A DNA stretch of 17,827 nucleotides, taken from a virus. Each line of letters opens with the position of its first letter. The first letter of the stretch is position 1. Both the position numbers and the translations under genes were made by a program. Of the stretch, positions 11,062 through 16,978 are shown one piece after another. Where the stretch lies: UHGV virus genome UHGV-0159506; one strand, 5' to 3'. The notes beneath the pieces were generated by a model. The model was not told where the DNA came from. It did not search any database and worked only from the letters and a program-made list of their open reading frames with translations.

Positions 11062-12426
11062 TTAATAATCCTCTTGCCAGTCAGCACCAGCATAGTTATC
11101 AAACCGTGAGTATTGGCCGTTAAAAGCCAATCTCACCGTGCCAATTGGGCCATTTCGTTGCTTTCCGATAATTACCTCGGCAATGCCCTTCATTTCGCTA
11201 TCCGGGTGATAAACTTCGTCGCGATACAGAAACATGATCAGGTCTGCGTCCTGCTCAATTGCTCCTGATTCACGTAAATCTGAATTTACCGGTCGTTTGT
11301 CCGCACGCTGTTCAAGCGATCGATTAAGTTGTGACAATGCCACCACCGGTACTTGTAATTCCTTCGCCAACGCCTTCAGTGAGCGAGAAATCTCGGCAAT
11401 TTCCAGCGTTCGGTTATCTTGCAGCTCGGGGACGCGCATAAGTTGCAGGTAGTCGATCATAATCATGCTCAAACCACCATTTTCTTTATAAACACGACGA
11501 GCGCGGGAACGAAGCTCTGTAGGTGTCAGGGCGCTTGAGTCATCAATAAAAATATTCTGCTTGTCCAACAGAATACCCATTGCGCCAGAAACCCGCGCCC
11601 AATCCTCGTCGTTAAGTTGCCCTGTTCGAATACGAGTCTGATCAACGCGTGCAAGAGAAGCCAGTGAGCGCATCATCAGCTGGTGGCTCGGCATCTCAAG
11701 GCTAAAAACCAATACGGGCTTATCGTTACGGACTGCGGCATTTTCGACGAGATTCATCGCAAACGTGGTCTTCCCCATAGATGGGCGGGCGGCGACAATG
11801 ATGAGATCGGACGGCTGAAGCCCTGCCGTCTTCTTATTGAGATCGGTAAATCCCGTATCAAGCCCCGTTACACCATCATGTGGTCGCTGAAACAACTCTT
11901 CTATGCGAGATACCGTTGCATCGAGAATGCTGGCGATATCTTTTGGACCACTACCGCTCTTTTGTCGTTTTTCAGCTATTTCAAAAACGCGGCGCTCGGC
12001 CATATCCAGCAATTCATTGCTGCCCCTGCCATCCTGCGCATATCCAGCTTCGGCTATTTCATTTGCGACGGAAATCATTTCACGAACAACCGCGCGTTCA
12101 CGAACGATATCCGCATAAGCACAAATATTTGCCGCGCTGGGCGTGTTCTTTGACATCTCCGCAAGGTACGCAAAACCACCGGCGCGTTCTAATTTACCGT
12201 TCTGTTCAAGTGCTTCAGCAAGTGTTATCAAATCAATCGGTTTGCCATGACTTAATAACCTCTCCATCTCACTGAAAATTTCACGATGAGCACTGGTATA
12301 AAAATCATCAGCAACTATACGATCTGCAACTTCATCCCAGCGGCAGTTATCAAGCATTAAGCCACCAAGTACAGCTTGTTCTGCACTAAGGGAATTTGGC
12401 ATGGATTCAAGAGGGGATGCAGACAT
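11062..12426 (-). CDS. ban: DnaB-family replicative helicase (phage P1 Ban-like)
   Basis: Track ORF of 456 aa, co-linear and highly similar to E. coli DnaB as I recall it (AEQAVLGGLMLDN, SDLIIVAARPSMGKTTFAMN, RNGPIGTVRLAFNGQYSRFDNY). The likely start is the ATG at 12424-12426, preceded by GGTGGAG. The context (tRNA-Ile, TerB-like gene, tRNA-Thr/Asn, methyltransferase) matches my recollection of the P1 ban region. Confidence 0.9.
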   Translation of the reverse strand: MSASPLESMPNSLSAEQAVLGGLMLDNCRWDEVADRIVADDFYTSAHREIFSEMERLLSHGKPIDLITLAEALEQNGKLERAGGFAYLAEMSKNTPSAANICAYADIVRERAVVREMISVANEIAEAGYAQDGRGSNELLDMAERRVFEIAEKRQKSGSGPKDIASILDATVSRIEELFQRPHDGVTGLDTGFTDLNKKTAGLQPSDLIIVAARPSMGKTTFAMNLVENAAVRNDKPVLVFSLEMPSHQLMMRSLASLARVDQTRIRTGQLNDEDWARVSGAMGILLDKQNIFIDDSSALTPTELRSRARRVYKENGGLSMIMIDYLQLMRVPELQDNRTLEIAEISRSLKALAKELQVPVVALSQLNRSLEQRADKRPVNSDLRESGAIEQDADLIMFLYRDEVYHPDSEMKGIAEVIIGKQRNGPIGTVRLAFNGQYSRFDNYAGADWQEDY

Positions 12427-12706
12427 TAGCACTCCACCCAGGCGTGCTGAATGTCAGATATAATCGGCATACTCAAATCACTCCTAACGATATGAGTCAT
12501 CACCAGAAAATCAGGATTAATTCGCCGGACTCTTCCCGGCTGTCACACCGAATCGCCAAGATGGTGAATCCGCAGTCCGACGCTATGAACGGGGCTTGCA
12601 CATTCCGGCTACCTGGTTTGTTGCCTGAGCTAGGGGAAAGGTTACCCCTTTAACGTCACCAGACCGCTAACGACGCATGTGCCAGACGCCGTGTTACAAC
12701 CAAATA

Positions 12707-12782
12707 TGGTGGCCCCTACCGGACTTGAACCGGTGACCGTGCGATTATGAGTCGCCAGCTCTAACCACTGAGCTAAAGGGCC
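12707..12782 (-). tRNA. tRNA-Ile (anticodon CAU, lysidine type; Met cannot be fully excluded), CCA encoded
   Basis: Manually folded cloverleaf: acceptor GGCCCTT/AGGGGCC, D-arm GCTC-AGTGGTTA-GAGC, anticodon loop CTCATAA, T-arm ACCGG-TTCAAGT-CCGGT. It closely resembles E. coli ileX as I recall it. Confidence 0.8.
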
Positions 12783-12785
12783 GGA

Positions 12786-12893
12786 TTACTGTTTCCTGAG
12801 TGCTTCTATGACGCCAGCAATACCGCCTACAACTATGCCAGCAATGACAACGAGAACAATTGGATGCTTGTCAGCAAAATCCCAGAAGCCCAT
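12786..12893 (-). CDS. 35-aa hydrophobic peptide, predicted single-pass membrane protein
   Basis: Not in the track (below 60 aa). Its ATG overlaps the upstream TGA (TGATG). Translation is MGFWDFADKHPIVLVVIAGIVVGGIAGVIEALRKQ. Confidence 0.4.
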   Translation of the reverse strand: MGFWDFADKHPIVLVVIAGIVVGGIAGVIEALRKQ

Positions 12894-13057
12894 CACTGAT
12901 CCTTAGAAGCTGTTTTTAATATCGGCCATACCAATGTTACAGCTACTGCCACCAACGCCCCGTCCGATAAAACTGACAGGATTGTGCTGGTGAAATCCAC
13001 CAGCACGGACAGCAAGAGAAAACCAATGGCGATTGCGATACGTGCCTTGCTTGCCAT
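12893..13057 (-). CDS. 54-aa hydrophobic peptide, predicted membrane protein
   Basis: Not in the track. Its ATG overlaps the TerB-like gene's TAA (TAATG). Translation is MASKARIAIAIGFLLLSVLVDFTSTILSVLSDGALVAVAVTLVWPILKTASKDQ. Confidence 0.45.
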   Translation of the reverse strand: MASKARIAIAIGFLLLSVLVDFTSTILSVLSDGALVAVAVTLVWPILKTASKDQ

Positions 13058-13491
13058 TACAGATAATCTTCCACACGAAGACCTAAACGACGGCCTACTT
13101 CTTCCAGTACTTTGTGTTCTGCTGGCTCGATTTCACCGTCCGCTTCTGCAATTGTCAGCATGTTAACGAATACTTCTTCCGCTTCTTTTGGATCGTTTTT
13201 GATATCTTCAATTTCGCGAAGGATATTCATGCGACCAACACGGAAGCCAGCTTCCAGTTGCTCGGTAAAGCGGGTAATTGTTGCAGTAATTTCGTTACCA
13301 AAATGACTAAGACGCGGATTAGAGCGGACAAGCTGATCAAGTTTCGCTGTTTCTTCTTTTTCGATTTCACCATCAGCGGCAGACACCAACAAACAGCCAC
13401 CGATACTGGCCTCCATCAGATCGCGATTCTCAACTTTTTTCAGCTCTACTTTTGCAGAAGCGACTTTCTTGCCGAACAATTTACCGAACAT
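13057..13491 (-). CDS. tciA: TerB-like (tellurite-resistance TerB domain) protein, P1 TciA-like
   Basis: Track ORF of 144 aa with ATG start and GAGGG SD. It has the two TerB-like acidic ADG-containing helices (LLVSAADGEIEKEE, LTIAEADGEIEPAEHKVLEEVGRRLGL). Confidence 0.75.
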   Translation of the reverse strand: MFGKLFGKKVASAKVELKKVENRDLMEASIGGCLLVSAADGEIEKEETAKLDQLVRSNPRLSHFGNEITATITRFTEQLEAGFRVGRMNILREIEDIKNDPKEAEEVFVNMLTIAEADGEIEPAEHKVLEEVGRRLGLRVEDYL

Positions 13492-14241
13492 TGGTTATCC
13501 CTCAATAAAAGTGACATATTTATTAGATTGCGGTGCCGGGTTCCTCCCGGTGTCCTTTGGCTGGTTATCCACCGTGGACGGGGAAACAAGGAGAAATGAA
13601 TGGACTGATATAACCATTTCCCCGCGTGCGCTTAGCCGCATTCACCGCAACGGAAAGAGCATTCTTGGTGGACCTGTAGATTGGGATATGAACCCGTTAC
13701 AGGAGAATGCTCTTACCTTTTACGTGCTCCGTTTCGTGGAGCTAACGGCGGGTGATCGGGCCGCACCAGACTGGACTTATTTCAGCGTTATGCTCATGCC
13801 AGAGAATCAAACTGTGATGGTCGGTGCTGAACTCCGACACAGGGTTGTAGCAAGCCCCACAAAGCGCGCACTACTGTAGTTGCGGCACATCAGCCTGTGC
13901 ATTCACCACAATGTTGAGAACACTGGTTGTCACGCTGCAACGCAACATTTATTCGTAGATTGGGATATGACCCCGTTACGCCAGTGTTCTCAACGTTGTA
14001 GTGCCGGTTACGGTTCCGGCCAGGCCTCTTCCTCAACGGGGTGTTCTCCATACGGACTACCGTTTATTGGTCGTTCCTGCGGTTTATGTTGTGAAGCCAG
14101 ATGCTTATCTTCTGGTTGCTTCAAAGAGCTGCACTTCATCACAACGGTAAGAGCACTGATACGGTTGGTTTTTGCCTCCGGATCGACTTGCGTCTTGTGT
14201 GCTGGCCCGCTCATCGCCAATGCTCTTACCTGTTGTGTTGG

Positions 14242-14314
14242 TGCCGATTAACGGACTCGAACCGCTGACATCCTGCTTACAAGGCAGGCGCTCTACCAAC
14301 TGAGCTAAACCGGC
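14242..14314 (-). tRNA. tRNA-Thr (anticodon UGU)
   Basis: Manual fold: acceptor GCCGGTT/AATCGGC, D-arm GCTC-AGTTGGTA-GAGC, anticodon stem CCTGC/GCAGG with loop CTTGTAA, T-arm with TTCGAGT loop. It is separated from tRNA-Asn by about 2 nt. Confidence 0.8.
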
Positions 14315-14316
14315 AT

Positions 14317-14392
14317 TGGCGATGGTGGATGGATTTGAACCATCGACCCGTTGATTAACAGTCAACCGCTCTAACCACTGAGCTACACCATC
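14317..14392 (-). tRNA. tRNA-Asn (anticodon GUU), CCA encoded
   Basis: Manual fold: acceptor GATGGTG/CACCATC, D-arm GCTC-AGTGGTTA-GAGC, anticodon stem GTTGA/TCAAC with loop CTGTTAA, T-loop TTCAAAT, discriminator G followed by CCA. Confidence 0.8.
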
Positions 14393-14856
14393 ACTTGCCG
14401 GGTACGTCTCCGGCGAGGGCTTCCACCTCCGTATGCTTTTCGGCGCACCGCGCCCTGACTGCAATTCGGTAACAGGGGATGCATAACCCTGGCTTCCAGC
14501 GTGATTAGCGCCTTCAGCATGACGGGATATACCCGTAAATTCGTGGAACTGTACCCAAAGTGCTGTTAAGCACCGCTGTTACGCTGAAAAGAAGACGCAA
14601 CAGGAAAGGACGCTGACCAACAGATGGCCCCTTCTCGTTCATCTGGTTAATCACACCAGCGCCCTTACCTGTTGTGCCTCCCCGTTCCCTAATACACAGA
14701 CGGGGACACTCTGCGGTCGATTTTTTGACGGGGGACGACTCATACCCCGTGGCATCTGGCTTCTTAGGCCGCTACCATCATCAGATCATCGTTTGCATTT
14801 ACTTTAATGGTCAGTTTCTAAACCGCCGCAAAGTCGCTAACCATGACGAAAACCCT

Positions 14857-14883
14857 GAAAAAAACGCCCACCCGAAGATGGGC
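14857..14883 (-). terminator. rho-independent terminator within the leader upstream of the tRNA/helicase operon
   Basis: On the minus strand: GCCCAUC-UUCG-GGUGGGC (7-bp stem with one G-U pair, UUCG tetraloop) followed by GUUUUUUUC. It lies about 165 nt downstream of the operator-controlled promoter. Confidence 0.6.
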
Positions 14884-15047
14884 AAACTGGAAGCTCGTAA
14901 CGCACTTCGGTGTTGCCACTTAGGCGTATGGTCAACCTGGCAACTCGGCGTCATGAGGGGGAAGGAGTCACTACCCCGCCATACTTGCCGCCGCGCCTGT
15001 CGCGGCTAACAGCTAAATCGCTCTATAAATCACGATTCATTGAGGCG

Positions 15048-15077
15048 ATATTACACTAATAAATTTATTAGAGCAAT
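15048..15077 (-). promoter_or_regulatory. sigma70-type promoter overlapped by a palindromic pair of C1 operator sites
   Basis: The minus strand reads ATTGCTCTAATAAATTT, a 17/17 match to the P1 C1 operator consensus, at 15061-15077. An overlapping 15/17 site lies on the plus strand at 15050-15066. The -35 TTGCTC, a 17-nt spacer and the -10 TAATAT are read off the minus strand. The methyltransferase stop codon is embedded in the operator. Confidence 0.6.
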
Positions 15078-16978
15078 ATGCCTAAAACGTCATGAGCAAC
15101 ACCTCGAGTGTCCCCCTTACAAGACACAGAACGTCTGGCAAAGAGAGGTTCCACTCTGAAGCCACTGTCCTGATAAAGCTCTCTGATGTTTGGCGCGCCA
15201 CTGTTAGTAATGAGTACCTTTGCACCTCGGCGATGAGCATCCGTCAACAGAGACACCAGGCGTTTTTGCTCTTCAAACTTAAAGTCATGACCGGAATAGT
15301 TCGTGAATCCCTCTGTATTTGGAAGCGGTTCATACGGCGGATCGCAAAAGATGACATCTCCTTCTCCGGCAGCTTCAATCACCGCTGCAAAATCACCGCA
15401 TACAAACTCAGACCGCCCTTCCGCACCGAGGAAGGCTTCCATCTCCTGTAATGGAAAATGCGTAGACTTATACTTCCCATACCCTACATTGAACTCACCG
15501 GCCTGGTTGTAGCGCGTCAATCCATTAAAACAATGTCGGTTCAGGAACAAAAACGCCGCTGCGCGATGTAAATCATCATAGACTTGTTTGTTAAACGCAT
15601 TCCGTACTGCCAGGAATCCCTCCTGGGTGTTGTAGTCCAAGAAGAAACGATGTGCCAGAGTGATAAGTGAATGCGCCTCGCGTTGCAGAGTCTTGTAAAA
15701 GTTAATCAGGTCAGCATTCACATCATTTAGCAGATTTTCCTGGTATCCGGCATTCATGAAGACAGCTCCGCCACCGACGAAAGGTTCAATCAGGCGCTTC
15801 CCTTCTGGCAAATAGCGAAAGATTTGTTCCAGAACACCAAATTTTCCACCAGCCCATTTGAATATGGACCGTTCGAATTCTGCCGCTGGTTTAACTTTTC
15901 GCTCTTTTGTTTCACTCCCTTCATTCTGCCGACATGCAGCCTTGGTAATCCGATCGCCAATCCAGCGCATTACTGGTATTGCCATACTATTGCCGATCGC
16001 TTTGTAACGCGGTCCGTCAGCTGCAAGCATCGCGGCCTCTTCTTCGCTTAAATCAGGATAGTTATTGCGAAGGTATGCCAGTTCATCTGAAGAAACTTTT
16101 TTACGCTTTTCCGTAGGGATCAACGTATGCCCATCAGGAAAACCTTGCAGCCTTTCACATTCGACAGGGGTAAGACGGCGTATTCTACCGTCGCCGAGCA
16201 ATACAATTGGTGCTTCATGGTTACATGTCAAAGTTGGTGCCGAATTATCGGTTTTTATCTCAGCCCCTCCTTGCCCATGTGCCATGGCAACTATGTTTGT
16301 ATCATCGCAAGATCTGATAGCGATGTTTGAAGTATATCTGGTAGTTTCCTTCCCCTCGCCTCTGCTCGGCGCAATATCCCGGCGCACGCCTTCGAACTCA
16401 AAAAGTACCGTTGCGGGATCGAGGTCTGTTCGAGCACTTGCGACAACAAACACGCGTCGGCGTCGTTGTGCCACTCCGAAGTATTGGGCATCAAGGATTC
16501 TCCAGGCCACTTTTCGCTGCGGTCCATAAATACAACCACACTGCGGCCACTTTGGAGCATGGCAACCGGTTTTGCCATCCCACCGCCAGAACGCGTTACT
16601 TTTTCCTGATTCAGGTCGATCACCTGGTTCAAATGGCGCATCTTCTCCAGCCAATCCGGCAAGGAAACATCCGAAGGCGTTATCTGCCGATGACAAGACT
16701 CCTGGGACATTTTCCCAGACAATAACGGCTGGTTTGAGAAATGACTCAGCCCGTTTGTCGTCAATTGCATTTGCAAGCTCCACATACTTTAAAGTTAGCG
16801 CGCCACGCTCATCATCAAGCCCACCACGTAATCCAGCGATACTGAATGCCTGACAGTTATGGACCACCGCACCATTGAGGATATAGGAATGATCACCTTC
16901 GACTTCTATGTTGTATACAGTATCTAGGCCTACCGATTTAAACTCTTTGACTGTTCGTAAAAGCATTCCGTGAGCCAA
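15068..16978 (-). CDS. dmt: bifunctional DNA methyltransferase: C5-cytosine domain (motifs IV-X) fused to Dam-like N6-adenine domain; the first ~41 codons are the intein C-terminal segment
   Basis: Track ORF of 636 aa. C5 motifs present: IV (CQAFSIAG), VI (ENVPG), VIII (QRRRRVF), IX (RLTPVECERLQGFPD), X (IGNSMAIPV). Dam motifs present: KWAGGK, EPFVGGGAVF, DPPY. Motifs I-III are absent because the N-terminal part lies upstream of the intein. As drawn, the ORF begins at a TTG four codons after an in-frame TAA; the ATG five codons in (MLLRTVKEF) is a plausible start. Confidence 0.8.
   Translation of the reverse strand: MAHGMLLRTVKEFKSVGLDTVYNIEVEGDHSYILNGAVVHNCQAFSIAGLRGGLDDERGALTLKYVELANAIDDKRAESFLKPAVIVWENVPGVLSSADNAFGCFLAGLAGEDAPFEPGDRPESGKSNAFWRWDGKTGCHAPKWPQCGCIYGPQRKVAWRILDAQYFGVAQRRRRVFVVASARTDLDPATVLFEFEGVRRDIAPSRGEGKETTRYTSNIAIRSCDDTNIVAMAHGQGGAEIKTDNSAPTLTCNHEAPIVLLGDGRIRRLTPVECERLQGFPDGHTLIPTEKRKKVSSDELAYLRNNYPDLSEEEAAMLAADGPRYKAIGNSMAIPVMRWIGDRITKAACRQNEGSETKERKVKPAAEFERSIFKWAGGKFGVLEQIFRYLPEGKRLIEPFVGGGAVFMNAGYQENLLNDVNADLINFYKTLQREAHSLITLAHRFFLDYNTQEGFLAVRNAFNKQVYDDLHRAAAFLFLNRHCFNGLTRYNQAGEFNVGYGKYKSTHFPLQEMEAFLGAEGRSEFVCGDFAAVIEAAGEGDVIFCDPPYEPLPNTEGFTNYSGHDFKFEEQKRLVSLLTDAHRRGAKVLITNSGAPNIRELYQDSGFRVEPLFARRSVSCKGDTRGVAHDVLGILL

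Follow-up and report, generated by a model that had tools for sequence, protein, structure and literature searches.

What do a TerB-domain gene and the two very small genes that overlap it do for a phage: do they protect the lysogen that carries them, or do they act while the phage itself is growing? We addressed this question for a locus in the virus genome UHGV-0159506, of which the whole analysed stretch of 17,827 nucleotides is referred to here as the window. An earlier note, made from the letters alone, had described a TerB-like gene followed by two coupled membrane-peptide genes, had likened it to the tciA-tciB-tciC arrangement of P1, and had suggested a membrane-stress or superinfection-exclusion module. 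The ORF list and the raw sequence bear out this layout, with three ORFs on the minus strand at 13491..13057 (144 aa), 13057..12893 (54 aa) and 12893..12786 (35 aa). The junctions read TAATG between the TerB and 54-aa ORFs and TGATG between the 54-aa and 35-aa ORFs, each a 1-nt overlap of stop and start. The identity proposed there was also correct, as the locus shares 99.4% DNA identity with P1 isolate OP279344, in which tciA, tciB and tciC are annotated. Identity to P7 is 98.8%, and the genes are named terB, upf69.4 and upf69.6 there.

The surroundings follow the same order as in reference P1, namely Oban, tRNA-Asn, tRNA-Thr, upl/plp, tciABC, trnI and ban. The bivalent C1 operator Oban (Op72), at which the Pban promoters are annotated in P1, occupies 15050..15077. 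The tRNA-Thr (UGU) and tRNA-Asn (GUU) genes lie between Oban and tciABC at 14239..14392 (minus strand; ARAGORN, Rfam). Downstream of tciABC, and also on the minus strand, are trnI at 12707..12782, with anticodon CAT (ARAGORN; Rfam tRNA, 64.7 bits; annotated as tRNA-Ile2 in P1), and ban at 11062..12432, a DnaB-like replicative helicase gene identified from the ORF list and the P1/P7 annotation of the homologous position. The window is that of a P1-like phage or phage-plasmid, and the locus comprises its tciA-tciB-tciC accessory genes. These genes are already known, being annotated in the P1 and P7 GenBank records (AF234172 and AF503408). The historical annotation of tciABC is 'tellurite or colicin resistance', and their role has been described by homology or as yet to be tested (PMC9603915, PMC6799933).

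The locus differs from reference P1 in one segment, at 13027-13521, which covers 30 nt upstream of tciA, the whole of tciA, and tciB codons 1-10. In blastn comparison with AF234172, positions 13522-14500 are 94.5% identical and 12401-13026 are 95.6% identical, and the interval separating these two stretches has no DNA match; protein alignments place the replacement in the same segment. The window carries a P7/D6-type tciA allele in place of the reference P1 allele. Of the 298 carriers found in complete E. coli genomes, 128 match at least 80% of the locus, P7-type tciA included, and the partial matches, among the matches listed, hold tciC and the 3' part of tciB only. P1-like elements have eight hypervariable regions, of which the tciABC locus is one, and the operon has been lost from nearly half of the P1 subgroup 1 phage-plasmids (PMC9603915). 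Such hypervariability, together with the allele replacement seen here, is a common pattern for defence-related cargo, and to this extent it favors superinfection exclusion or lysogenic conversion, in which a lysogen would express tciABC and thereby block phage DNA, pore-forming colicins or tellurite.

tciA (13057..13491, minus strand) is preceded by a GAGGG Shine-Dalgarno sequence 7 nt before its ATG. Its product matches Pfam TerB (E 2.8e-14), PHROG 632 (5.5e-63) and the TerB structure PDB 2JXU (3e-7). Protein identity is 99% with P7 TerB and 31% with TciA of reference P1. It has no hydrophobic segment, with a maximum 19-residue Kyte-Doolittle mean of 1.1, and TciA is, as judged from its sequence, a soluble TerB-domain protein. 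Across 26 distinct phage TerBs, two DGxxxxxE motifs (D40 G41 E47 and D118 G119 E125) are at least 90% conserved, as are the N-terminal residues G3, K8, K9, K18, K19, E21, R23 and D24, and the N-terminal tail is basic, with a net charge of +3 to +7. An AlphaFold model of TciA from the single sequence is composed entirely of helices, and its pLDDT of only 64.5 was considered insufficient for a fold search. TciA peptides have been found in material purified from P1 lysates (PMC9024508).

The homology to TerB is genuine (Pfam, PDB 2JXU), and resistance to tellurite and colicins as well as inhibition of phages has been reported for ter operons (PMC9603915, PMC8123226); both points speak for exclusion, and the two small membrane proteins are similar in size class to known exclusion proteins. 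However, TerB stands alone here, with no TerC, TerD, TerE or TerZ annotated within 2.5 kb in P1, P7 or the closest isolate, and the tciABC operon has been called incomplete (PMC6799933). PADLOC likewise returned no credible defence-system match for the locus (a weak match at E 0.013 was disregarded).

tciB (12893..13057, minus strand) encodes a 54-aa DUF3927 mini membrane protein that matches Pfam DUF3927 at E 1.7e-26 and also PHROG 1470. It is 98% identical to its P7 counterpart and 85% identical to P1 TciB (85-100% across P1/P7 TciB). The earlier note had assigned one hydrophobic helix to each small protein. This holds for the 35-aa TciC, which we read as single-pass, and is uncertain for TciB, whose hydrophobic stretch (maximum 19-residue Kyte-Doolittle mean 2.2) runs over about 41 residues (7-47), is broken by the conserved D21-F-T-S and D32-G, and has basic residues at both ends. 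This length exceeds that of a single ordinary membrane span, and TciB may therefore form a two-segment hairpin. AlphaFold, given an alignment of 29 sequences, instead models one continuous helix over residues 2-52 (pLDDT 90). Hydropathy and model thus point differently as to a hairpin or one long helix.

Conservation of DUF3927 goes beyond chance. Two of its residues, D21 and F22, never vary, and three others, V18, S28 and D32, are conserved to at least 90%. Frame conservation in related phages, on which the earlier note had let the reality of the small ORFs depend, is found for tciB in about 30 clusters (50% identity), with a dN/dS of about 0.35-0.45. A word-indexed protein search with TciB retrieved close relatives only; an exhaustive HMMER search recovered the approximately 30 clusters, whose members are small and stand-alone, and neither search revealed a TerB-DUF3927 fusion among these clusters. 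The sole long HMMER match, P0014 (813 aa, 13 stretches), has tandem repeats and no DUF3927 motif and was rejected as spurious. In the literature searched, DUF3927 occurs in two papers, in one of them as a label in a figure, and a functional study of tciABC was not found.

tciC (12786..12893, minus strand) encodes 35 aa from its ATG, or 36 aa if translation began at a GTG one codon earlier. The protein is 100% identical to P1 TciC and P7 Upf69.6 and matches PHROG 23152 (3.4e-27). Its hydropathy peaks at residues 11-29, with a 19-residue Kyte-Doolittle maximum of 2.7, and the membrane span carries G19xxxG23xxxG27. trnI starts 3 nt past the tciC stop codon on the same strand. The gene is limited to the P1/P7/SJ46/D6 lineage, and its annotation is inconsistent: RefSeq records omit tciC, and in the GenBank record of D6 the tciC-like ORF is missing as well.

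This raises the possibility that tciC is not a gene, only an incidental open frame between tciB and trnI, and that the module is a two-gene pair. The RefSeq pipeline makes no call, TciC has no Pfam family, and all other lineages with TerB and DUF3927 are without tciC. Between P1 and SJ46 alleles, dN/dS is 0.6-0.9 over very few sites, a sign of only weak purifying selection, and we estimate that a random frame of this length would stay open with a probability of roughly 0.2. Nevertheless, the frame is open in all 53 of the P1/P7/SJ46/D6-type loci examined (one allele is one codon shorter), in keeping with what the earlier note had expected of a genuine gene, and the substitutions between alleles are conservative and hydrophobic. 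tciC also has a good Shine-Dalgarno sequence, AAGGA, 6 nt before its ATG, in addition to the 1-nt overlap with the tciB stop. Moreover, D6 has an unannotated ortholog at the equivalent overlapping position, about 31% identical by manual alignment, which shares the start position, an M-x-F-W-x3-D-K-x-P head, the hydrophobic core and the basic tail. We therefore regard it as quite improbable that tciC is a chance frame. A 31-aa ORF with an MLDFF start, found after DUF3927 in the lambdoid group, was considered as a tciC remnant and dropped for insufficient evidence.

The conserved core of the module is the overlapping TerB and DUF3927 pair, which is found in P1-like, D6, N4-like, SSU5-like and lambdoid phages as well as in Pantoea and Pseudomonas phages. 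We surveyed 101 related loci with a DUF3927 ORF. An intact TerB lies upstream in 76 of them, and the two genes overlap by 1, 4 or 8 nt in 75 of these 76, the remaining one abutting. In about 21 further loci TerB contains an in-frame stop, and it is missing from three loci only (two 434-type and one other). A frameshifted TerB in E. coli lambdoid prophages was considered and rejected, as tblastn gives a single frame with an in-frame stop, that is, a nonsense mutation. Because some prophages keep DUF3927 beside an inactivated TerB or none, TciB may also act without TerB.

Other phages also place a small membrane protein after TerB. The Pantoea and Pseudomonas phages encode a TciA-like TerB followed by a DUF3927 protein above the Pfam cutoff, and in an Erwinia jumbo phage a sub-threshold DUF3927 relative is placed after a TciA-like TerB. 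In three Pseudomonas phages, the DUF3927 position is taken by an unrelated protein of about 70 aa that has a membrane helix at its N terminus. Coupling of TerB to a tiny membrane protein is almost obligatory across many phages, and this speaks for a membrane link of the kind that the earlier note suggested. We also note that tight linkage of tciA and tciB is equally expected of any co-transferred cassette.

The small proteins could instead be the effectors of the locus, depolarising the membrane, inhibiting division or tuning lysis in a holin- or antiholin-like manner, with TerB as their regulator or antidote. TciC carries a glycine zipper (GxxxGxxxG), and the long hydrophobic helix of TciB presents two Asp residues, invariant or nearly so, on one of its faces; glycine zippers and in-helix Asp residues are known from membrane peptides that oligomerise. 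In phage LMessi the holin and endolysin genes come directly after the pair, and DUF3927 persists where TerB is inactivated or absent. This same persistence of an intact DUF3927 beside a dead TerB argues against strong toxicity of the small protein alone, and searches of Pfam, PHROG and NCBIfam profiles turned up nothing resembling a known holin or type I toxin. The P1 locus, for its part, lies among tRNA, ban and dbn genes, with no lysis genes annotated within 2.5 kb. CRISPRi has shown tciA, tciB and tciC to be non-essential in P1, and knock-down of any of them has little effect on plating (PMC10695390), which also speaks against such effectors. On this evidence, we consider an effector role for the small proteins unlikely.

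The position of the genes relative to the C1 operator is informative about when they would be expressed. The operator ATTGCTCTAATAAATTT has a perfect match at 15061-15077 on the minus strand and a match with two mismatches at 15050-15066 on the plus strand, and the P1 and P7 annotations put Oban at this site. tciABC lie downstream of it, between Oban and ban, and no promoter region annotated upstream on their strand is nearer than Oban/Pban. A simple scan of the minus strand between Oban and ban revealed no promoter-like site, although an internal promoter is possible, and the part of the P7 annotation available to us states that Op(ban) governs the downstream tRNA genes. Between Oban and tciA there are also a terminator-like hairpin (14884..14865) and the opposed upl/plp genes. 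The leader upstream of tciA (13529..13649, minus strand) resembles the prophage sRNA family STnc100 (Rfam RF02076) at 33.9 bits, below the gathering score of 47; with E 3e-4 for the whole window and 7e-6 for a 401-nt stretch, the significance of this match is uncertain. Transcript levels of tciA, tciB and tciC are on record for two times after P1vir infection (bioRxiv 10.64898/2025.12.28.696737).

The phages that carry the pair provide a second line of evidence. In lambdoid phages it occupies a late-gene slot after Q. It is also present in N4-like Schitoviridae, and TciA-like TerB proteins occur in jumbo phages; N4-like Schitoviridae are regarded as virulent, and jumbo phages are taken as non-lysogenic. 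Because tciABC lie downstream of Oban and the pair is present in N4-like phages, the evidence points to action in lytic growth rather than to classical exclusion expressed by a lysogen. The occurrence of the module in N4-like and jumbo phages, and the position of the genes behind a C1 operator with no promoter of their own detected on that strand, both argue against exclusion or lysogenic conversion, which we consider improbable. As the pair occurs in N4-like phages and follows either a repressor-controlled operator or the Q antiterminator, the label 'tellurite/colicin resistance' is doubtful; it is probably misleading for tciABC, and a lysogenic-conversion trait is probably not what these genes confer.

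The explanation we favor, with a probability of roughly 0.55 for the whole, is that tciABC are co-transcribed from Pban and that TciB, together with TciC, holds TciA at the inner membrane during lytic growth. From the annotation and the promoter scan, co-transcription would begin once C1 repression is lifted, upon infection or induction, and the three genes would be translated in a coupled fashion. TciB, aided by TciC in the P1 lineage, would serve as the inner-membrane partner that tethers TciA at the cytoplasmic face, and the conserved basic N-terminal tail of TciA would help in this tethering. TciABC would represent a minimal, split form of the systems in which TerB is associated with the membrane, be it through TerC or, in DjlA, through a helix joined to the TerB-like domain. 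Counting against this explanation are the lack of a TerB-DUF3927 fusion among the approximately 30 clusters, the prophages that retain DUF3927 beside a dead or missing TerB, the weak selection on tciC, the hairpin and opposed genes between Oban and tciA, and the loss of the operon from nearly half of the P1 subgroup 1 phage-plasmids. The complex may adjust or protect the inner membrane and ion physiology of the infected cell in lytic growth, a function that would be dispensable in the laboratory. Candidate outputs are a defence against pore-formers or incoming phage, homeostasis of metals or of the proton-motive force, and control over when lysis occurs.

More tentatively, a TciA-like TerB with a tiny membrane protein could be a widespread two-component phage module of the lytic phase, in which the mini-protein would be a membrane receptor for TerB that replaces TerC. 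The module is hosted by temperate phage-plasmids, lambdoid prophages, and N4-like and jumbo phages of several Gammaproteobacteria. If this were true, a system of about 200 residues would be the smallest tractable model for the role of the TerB domain at membranes, a question shared with ter operons and DjlA (PMC11709261). TerB with DUF3927 offers a minimal, non-essential and easily manipulated version of a putatively membrane-associated TerB system.

Among known systems, the closest is tciABC of P1 and P7 itself, in which the three genes, their order, their overlaps and the flanking genes are all as in the window. Reference P1 differs in that the tciA and the first 10 tciB codons of the window are of P7/D6 type, giving the 31% protein identity for TciA. 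The Ter systems (terZABCDE) have in common with TciA the TerB fold and signature motifs, and in both cases a membrane partner is encoded beside TerB. In contrast, this partner is the integral membrane protein TerC in Ter systems and the 54-aa TciB, unrelated to TerC, in the window, and the annotated neighbours of tciABC within 2.5 kb are tRNAs, upl/plp, ban and dbn rather than genes for TerC, TerD, TerE or TerZ. In the Vibrio N4-like phage PhiImVa-1, a tciA-like TerB directly follows TerD-TerB-TerC (TerC, Pfam 1.5e-41), which also speaks for a membrane link.

The E. coli co-chaperone DjlA places a TerB-like domain at the cytoplasmic face of the inner membrane beside a transmembrane helix (PMC11709261). 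Whereas DjlA combines helix and TerB-like domain in one polypeptide that also contains a J domain, TciA and TciB are separate and have no J domain. The match of TciA to the NCBIfam DjlA TerB-like region (E 1.4e-5) is far below the cutoff, so the resemblance is one of analogy, not membership. Other NCBIfam matches (YmfL, RfaL and EssA), all far below their cutoffs, were rejected.

A further parallel is the moron cargo between Q and the lysis genes of lambdoid and Stx phages. In E. coli lambdoid prophages, TerB-DUF3927 follows Q and three tRNA genes (anticodons CAT, TCG and TCT) and precedes a nanS-p type esterase gene. This slot is where Stx phages carry their toxin genes. The lambdoid pair belongs to a Q-dependent late operon, whereas the P1-like pair lies downstream of the repressor-controlled Oban/Pban. 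The tRNA genes are upstream of the pair in the lambdoid cargo, while trnI is downstream of it in P1-like elements, and the lambdoid tRNA with the CAT anticodon is 85% identical to trnI of the window.

In the raw sequence, the ORF list places three consecutive genes on the minus strand: tciA, encoding a TerB-domain protein (13491..13057, 144 aa), tciB, encoding a DUF3927 protein (13057..12893, 54 aa), and tciC, encoding a hydrophobic protein (12893..12786, 35 aa from its ATG, with an in-frame GTG one codon upstream). The junctions read TAATG (tciA/tciB) and TGATG (tciB/tciC), with one base common to each stop and the next start. The earlier note had described this same run of overlapping ORFs, and the exact coordinates agree with it. 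tciA and tciC are preceded by Shine-Dalgarno sequences GAGGG (7 nt upstream) and AAGGA (6 nt upstream), respectively. tciB has only a weak one (GGAAG, ~10 nt upstream), as expected if its translation is coupled to that of tciA. The tRNA gene trnI (anticodon CAT; 12782..12707, minus strand) begins 3 nt after the tciC stop (stop and spacer together, 12783-12788), compared with a spacing of 9 nt between tciC-ortholog stop and tRNA in phage D6 (locus L004, 1775/1785). If tciC and trnI share a transcript, the tciC mRNA would retain almost no 3' untranslated region after RNase P cleavage.

The 1.1-kb region is 99.4% identical to P1 isolate OP279344, which annotates the ORFs as tciA/tciB/tciC, and 98.8% identical to P7, which names them terB/upf69.4/upf69.6. 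Reference P1 (AF234172) has the same three-gene arrangement in the same neighborhood, in the order dmt, the bivalent C1 repressor operator Oban with Pban promoters, a dicF-like region, tRNA-Asn, tRNA-Thr, plp/upl (opposite orientation), tciA, tciB, tciC, trnI, ban (a DnaB-like helicase gene), and dbn. The tRNAs and ban of the window correspond to this order, and Oban is found as a perfect half-site at 15061-15077 and a second half-site at 15050-15066. With all four defining features present, these genes belong to the known P1/P7 tciABC locus, in agreement with the P1 arrangement named in the earlier note, and the finding itself is already known. Further matches to the C1 operator consensus occur at 1526-1542, 1575-1591, and 5199-5215 (2-3 mismatches; 0.07 expected by chance); these are presumably additional operators under C1 control in the P1-like genome.

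The window TciA shares only 31% identity with reference P1 TciA, while in TciB the differences are confined to residues 1-15 and TciC does not differ. At the DNA level, homology to reference P1 covers 13522-14500 (94.5%) and 12401-13026 (95.6%) with no match between them, so the replaced cassette extends from 30 nt upstream of tciA to tciB codon 10. Two DGxxxxxE motifs (D40 G41 E47; D118 G119 E125) are kept in both TerB types. The locus was matched in 298 of 5,426 complete E. coli genomes, almost always plasmid-borne; 128 of these carriers match at least 80% of the locus length, P7-type tciA included, and among the partial matches listed only tciC and the 3' part of tciB are covered. tciABC is one of eight hypervariable regions of P1-like phage-plasmids, and the operon is lost in nearly half of P1 subgroup 1 (PMC9603915).

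TciA matches Pfam TerB (2.8e-14), PHROG 632 'tellurite resistance' (5.5e-63), and, over nearly its full length, the solved Klebsiella TerB structure 2JXU (3e-7), which confirms the TerB-domain assignment proposed earlier. Hydropathy analysis gave no hydrophobic segment in TciA. Its 24-residue N-terminal tail is conserved as well as the TerB motifs across 26 distinct TerBs (G3, K8, K9, A13, K18, K19, E21, R23, and D24; net charge +3 to +7) and has pLDDT <50 in a single-sequence model. TciB matches Pfam DUF3927 (1.7e-26) and PHROG 1470, and TciC matches PHROG 23152 (3.4e-27), with no family found for TciC in the Pfam search. PADLOC and NCBIfam searches returned no match above threshold.

One hydrophobic helix per small protein had been expected, and this holds for TciC, which has one clear span (residues 11-29) containing G19xxxG23xxxG27. 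Its acidic to neutral N-terminus and basic C-terminus (RK) suggest an N-out, C-in topology. TciB is less simple. Its hydrophobic stretch (approximately residues 7-47) is flanked at both ends by basic residues. D21-F22 (no variation among 29 family members) and S28 and D32 (each conserved to at least 90%) break it up, and it could form a two-segment hairpin with both ends cytoplasmic. An AlphaFold model built on a 29-sequence alignment instead predicts one continuous helix (residues 2-52; pLDDT 90.4, pTM 0.47), on which V18, D21/F22, S28, and D32 would share one face.

To assess the small genes we compared 80 IMG/VR loci and 13 GTDB genome loci encoding DUF3927, together with annotated phage records, and recovered the DUF3927 ORF in 101 loci. 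tciB is represented by 33 distinct nucleotide alleles with dN/dS of ~0.35-0.45 (equal-length alleles only). When 1.84 billion representatives were scanned exhaustively with HMMER, ~30 DUF3927 clusters emerged, all stand-alone and ~50-90 aa; one further match was judged spurious. By these comparisons tciB is certainly a gene, and its frame passes the test of conservation in related phages that the earlier note had set. For tciC the outcome is narrower: the frame is open in 53 of 53 P1/P7/SJ46/D6-type loci (10 nucleotide alleles, one of them a codon shorter with a Gly-to-Asp change in the span), and tciC is absent from all other lineages with TerB and DUF3927 among the loci compared. Replacements are conservative (V/I, A/V, G/S/A), and dN/dS between P1 and SJ46 alleles is 0.6-0.9, weak evidence from just 3-5 synonymous and 9-10 non-synonymous differences. 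The RefSeq pipeline leaves tciC unannotated, including in records of P1-like plasmids, and it is possible, but less likely, that tciC is not a gene. The best support that it is one comes from D6, whose GenBank record (MF356679) annotates only the tciA and tciB homologs. There, an unannotated 37-codon ORF (L004 1662-1775; 36 aa from the second ATG) overlaps the tciB-homolog stop at the same position as tciC. This divergent ortholog, MMDFWTYIDKNPGWSLLFLLVIVYGVEQVAKNLRRRK, has the same M-x-F-W-x3-D-K-x-P head, hydrophobic core, and basic tail, with ~31% identity estimated from a manual alignment. tciC is thus probably a gene limited to the P1/P7/SJ46/D6 lineage.

Judged from the loci compared, what is conserved as a unit is TerB paired with DUF3927. 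An intact TerB ends at the DUF3927 start in 76 loci. Most of these (66) show a 1-nt overlap, eight a 4-nt overlap, and one an 8-nt overlap, and in one the genes abut. Carriers include Punavirus (P1, P7, SJ46) and D6, N4-like Schitoviridae (Pollock, FSL SP-058/076 and relatives), elements of ~108 kb (Cyrano, CMS-2020a), the pSLy3 phage-plasmid group, Klebsiella phages, and lambdoid phages, with the pair between Q and holin/endolysin in LMessi. E. coli lambdoid prophages have the order Q, tRNA trio (CAT, TCG, and TCT anticodons), TerB, DUF3927, nanS-p type esterase, the slot in which Stx phages carry their toxin genes. Approximately 21 more loci, near-clonal E. coli lambdoid prophages (a subset of L057-L089), have an intact DUF3927 and a TerB interrupted by an in-frame stop (after roughly codon 45 in intact-homolog numbering; e.g. 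L075 2034-2495). Only three loci lack TerB: two of phage 434 type, in which DUF3927 is preceded by a 247-aa multi-pass membrane protein, and one other. This survival of DUF3927 without TerB, together with the TciC glycine zipper and the TciB intramembrane Asp pair, is consistent with the small proteins being membrane-active effectors and TerB their regulator, although neither a knock-down phenotype nor homology supports that assignment. Beside the tRNA, non-coding window sequence just downstream of trnI (12600-12706) has ~90% identity to a stretch found in many Stx2c-converting phages, and trnI shares 85% identity with the lambdoid prophage tRNA bearing a CAT anticodon, which suggests that P1-like and lambdoid phages have exchanged tRNA-linked cassettes.

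A tblastn search with TciA found full-length relatives in 129 phage records (among them Vibrio 33, Erwinia jumbo 18, Pseudomonas 17, and Klebsiella 17), and we inspected the neighborhoods of ten. The downstream mini-protein scores above the Pfam DUF3927 cutoff in Pantoea LIET2 and Pseudomonas phiK7B1 (27.4 and 30.6 bits) and below it in Erwinia ChrisDB (14 bits). In Pseudomonas Lana (L104), AF (L105), and Zuri (L110), an unrelated ~70-aa protein with an N-terminal membrane helix follows TerB at an offset of -4 or +4 nt, in the position that DUF3927 holds in enterobacterial phages; this family has a conserved motif, C-x-W/I-Y-G-Y/W-Q-T-E/D-R ... V-G-C-M-V, and no Pfam match. Vibrio N4-like PhiImVa-1 (L113; ON042477, 1-2612) encodes a compact TerD-TerB-TerC (TerC, Pfam 1.5e-41), with a second, tciA-like TerB directly behind it. 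No hydrophobic small ORF was found in Cygsa01, K481, and phiM5. Since a membrane partner was found in most but not all of the ten, it is the rule for the TciA-type TerB subfamily without being universal.

tciABC lies between Oban and ban on the same strand and is probably transcribed from C1-repressed Pban, because the promoter scan found no promoter-like site on the minus strand between Oban and ban, the reference P1 record annotates none before tciA, and the P7 record states that Op(ban) controls downstream tRNA genes. As a caveat, a terminator-like hairpin (14884..14865) and the opposed upl/plp lie between. The module would act during lytic development, because the pair follows Q in lambdoid phages and is present in N4-like phages, which are known as virulent phages. 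Lysogenic conversion or superinfection exclusion, a defence-related role that hypervariability and allele swapping would fit, is weakened by this position between C1 operator and ban, by the pair's presence in phages taken as non-lysogenic, and by an annotated neighborhood in which neither TerC nor TerD appears.

The sole sigma-70-like promoter match in 12300-15200 is at 13199-13227 on the plus strand, inside tciA and directed toward upl/plp; the predicted P1upl/P2upl promoters of reference P1 map within the 5' end of tciA or immediately upstream of it. A promoter at 13199-13227 would yield RNA antisense to the 5' part of tciA. Between tciA and the mapped upl position (~13688, estimated), 13529-13649 on the minus strand matches the prophage sRNA family STnc100 below threshold (RF02076; 33.9 bits vs a gathering score of 47). 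STnc100/PasD and PasA/PasC sRNAs have been tied to lambdoid prophage regions, with conserved neighbors including Q in one group and TerB in another (2026 preprint 10.64898/2026.05.13.724894). Given this match and these neighbors, the tciA leader may derive from an STnc100-type element.

In published data, CRISPRi shows that P1 can plate without tciA, tciB, or tciC, all three being non-essential (PMC10695390). A study of P1vir infection measured transcripts of the three genes at two time points (bioRxiv 10.64898/2025.12.28.696737), and CsCl-purified P1 preparations contained two TciA peptides (PMC9024508). We found no tellurite, colicin, or exclusion tests of tciABC in the searchable literature, and two papers explicitly call such work still to be done or the matter unclear (PMC6799933, PMC9603915).

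We propose that TciB, together with TciC in the P1 lineage, would hold TciA against the inner membrane on its cytoplasmic side, and that the complex would condition or protect the infected cell's membrane and ion physiology. The residual value of the finding is that a TciA-like TerB with a mini membrane protein may be a widespread lytic-phase phage pair, small enough that it could be used as a minimal model of what TerB does. By analogy, tciABC may work like a membrane-associated TerB system. The role of the DjlA TerB-like domain is itself undefined (PMC11709261). The TciA-TciB arrangement would resemble, in split and minimal form, TerB with TerC or the DjlA membrane helix with its TerB-like domain. 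The locus is not a ter operon, since its annotated neighborhood includes neither TerC nor TerD, and it differs from a DjlA-type protein in that the TerB domain and the membrane helix are here on separate chains.
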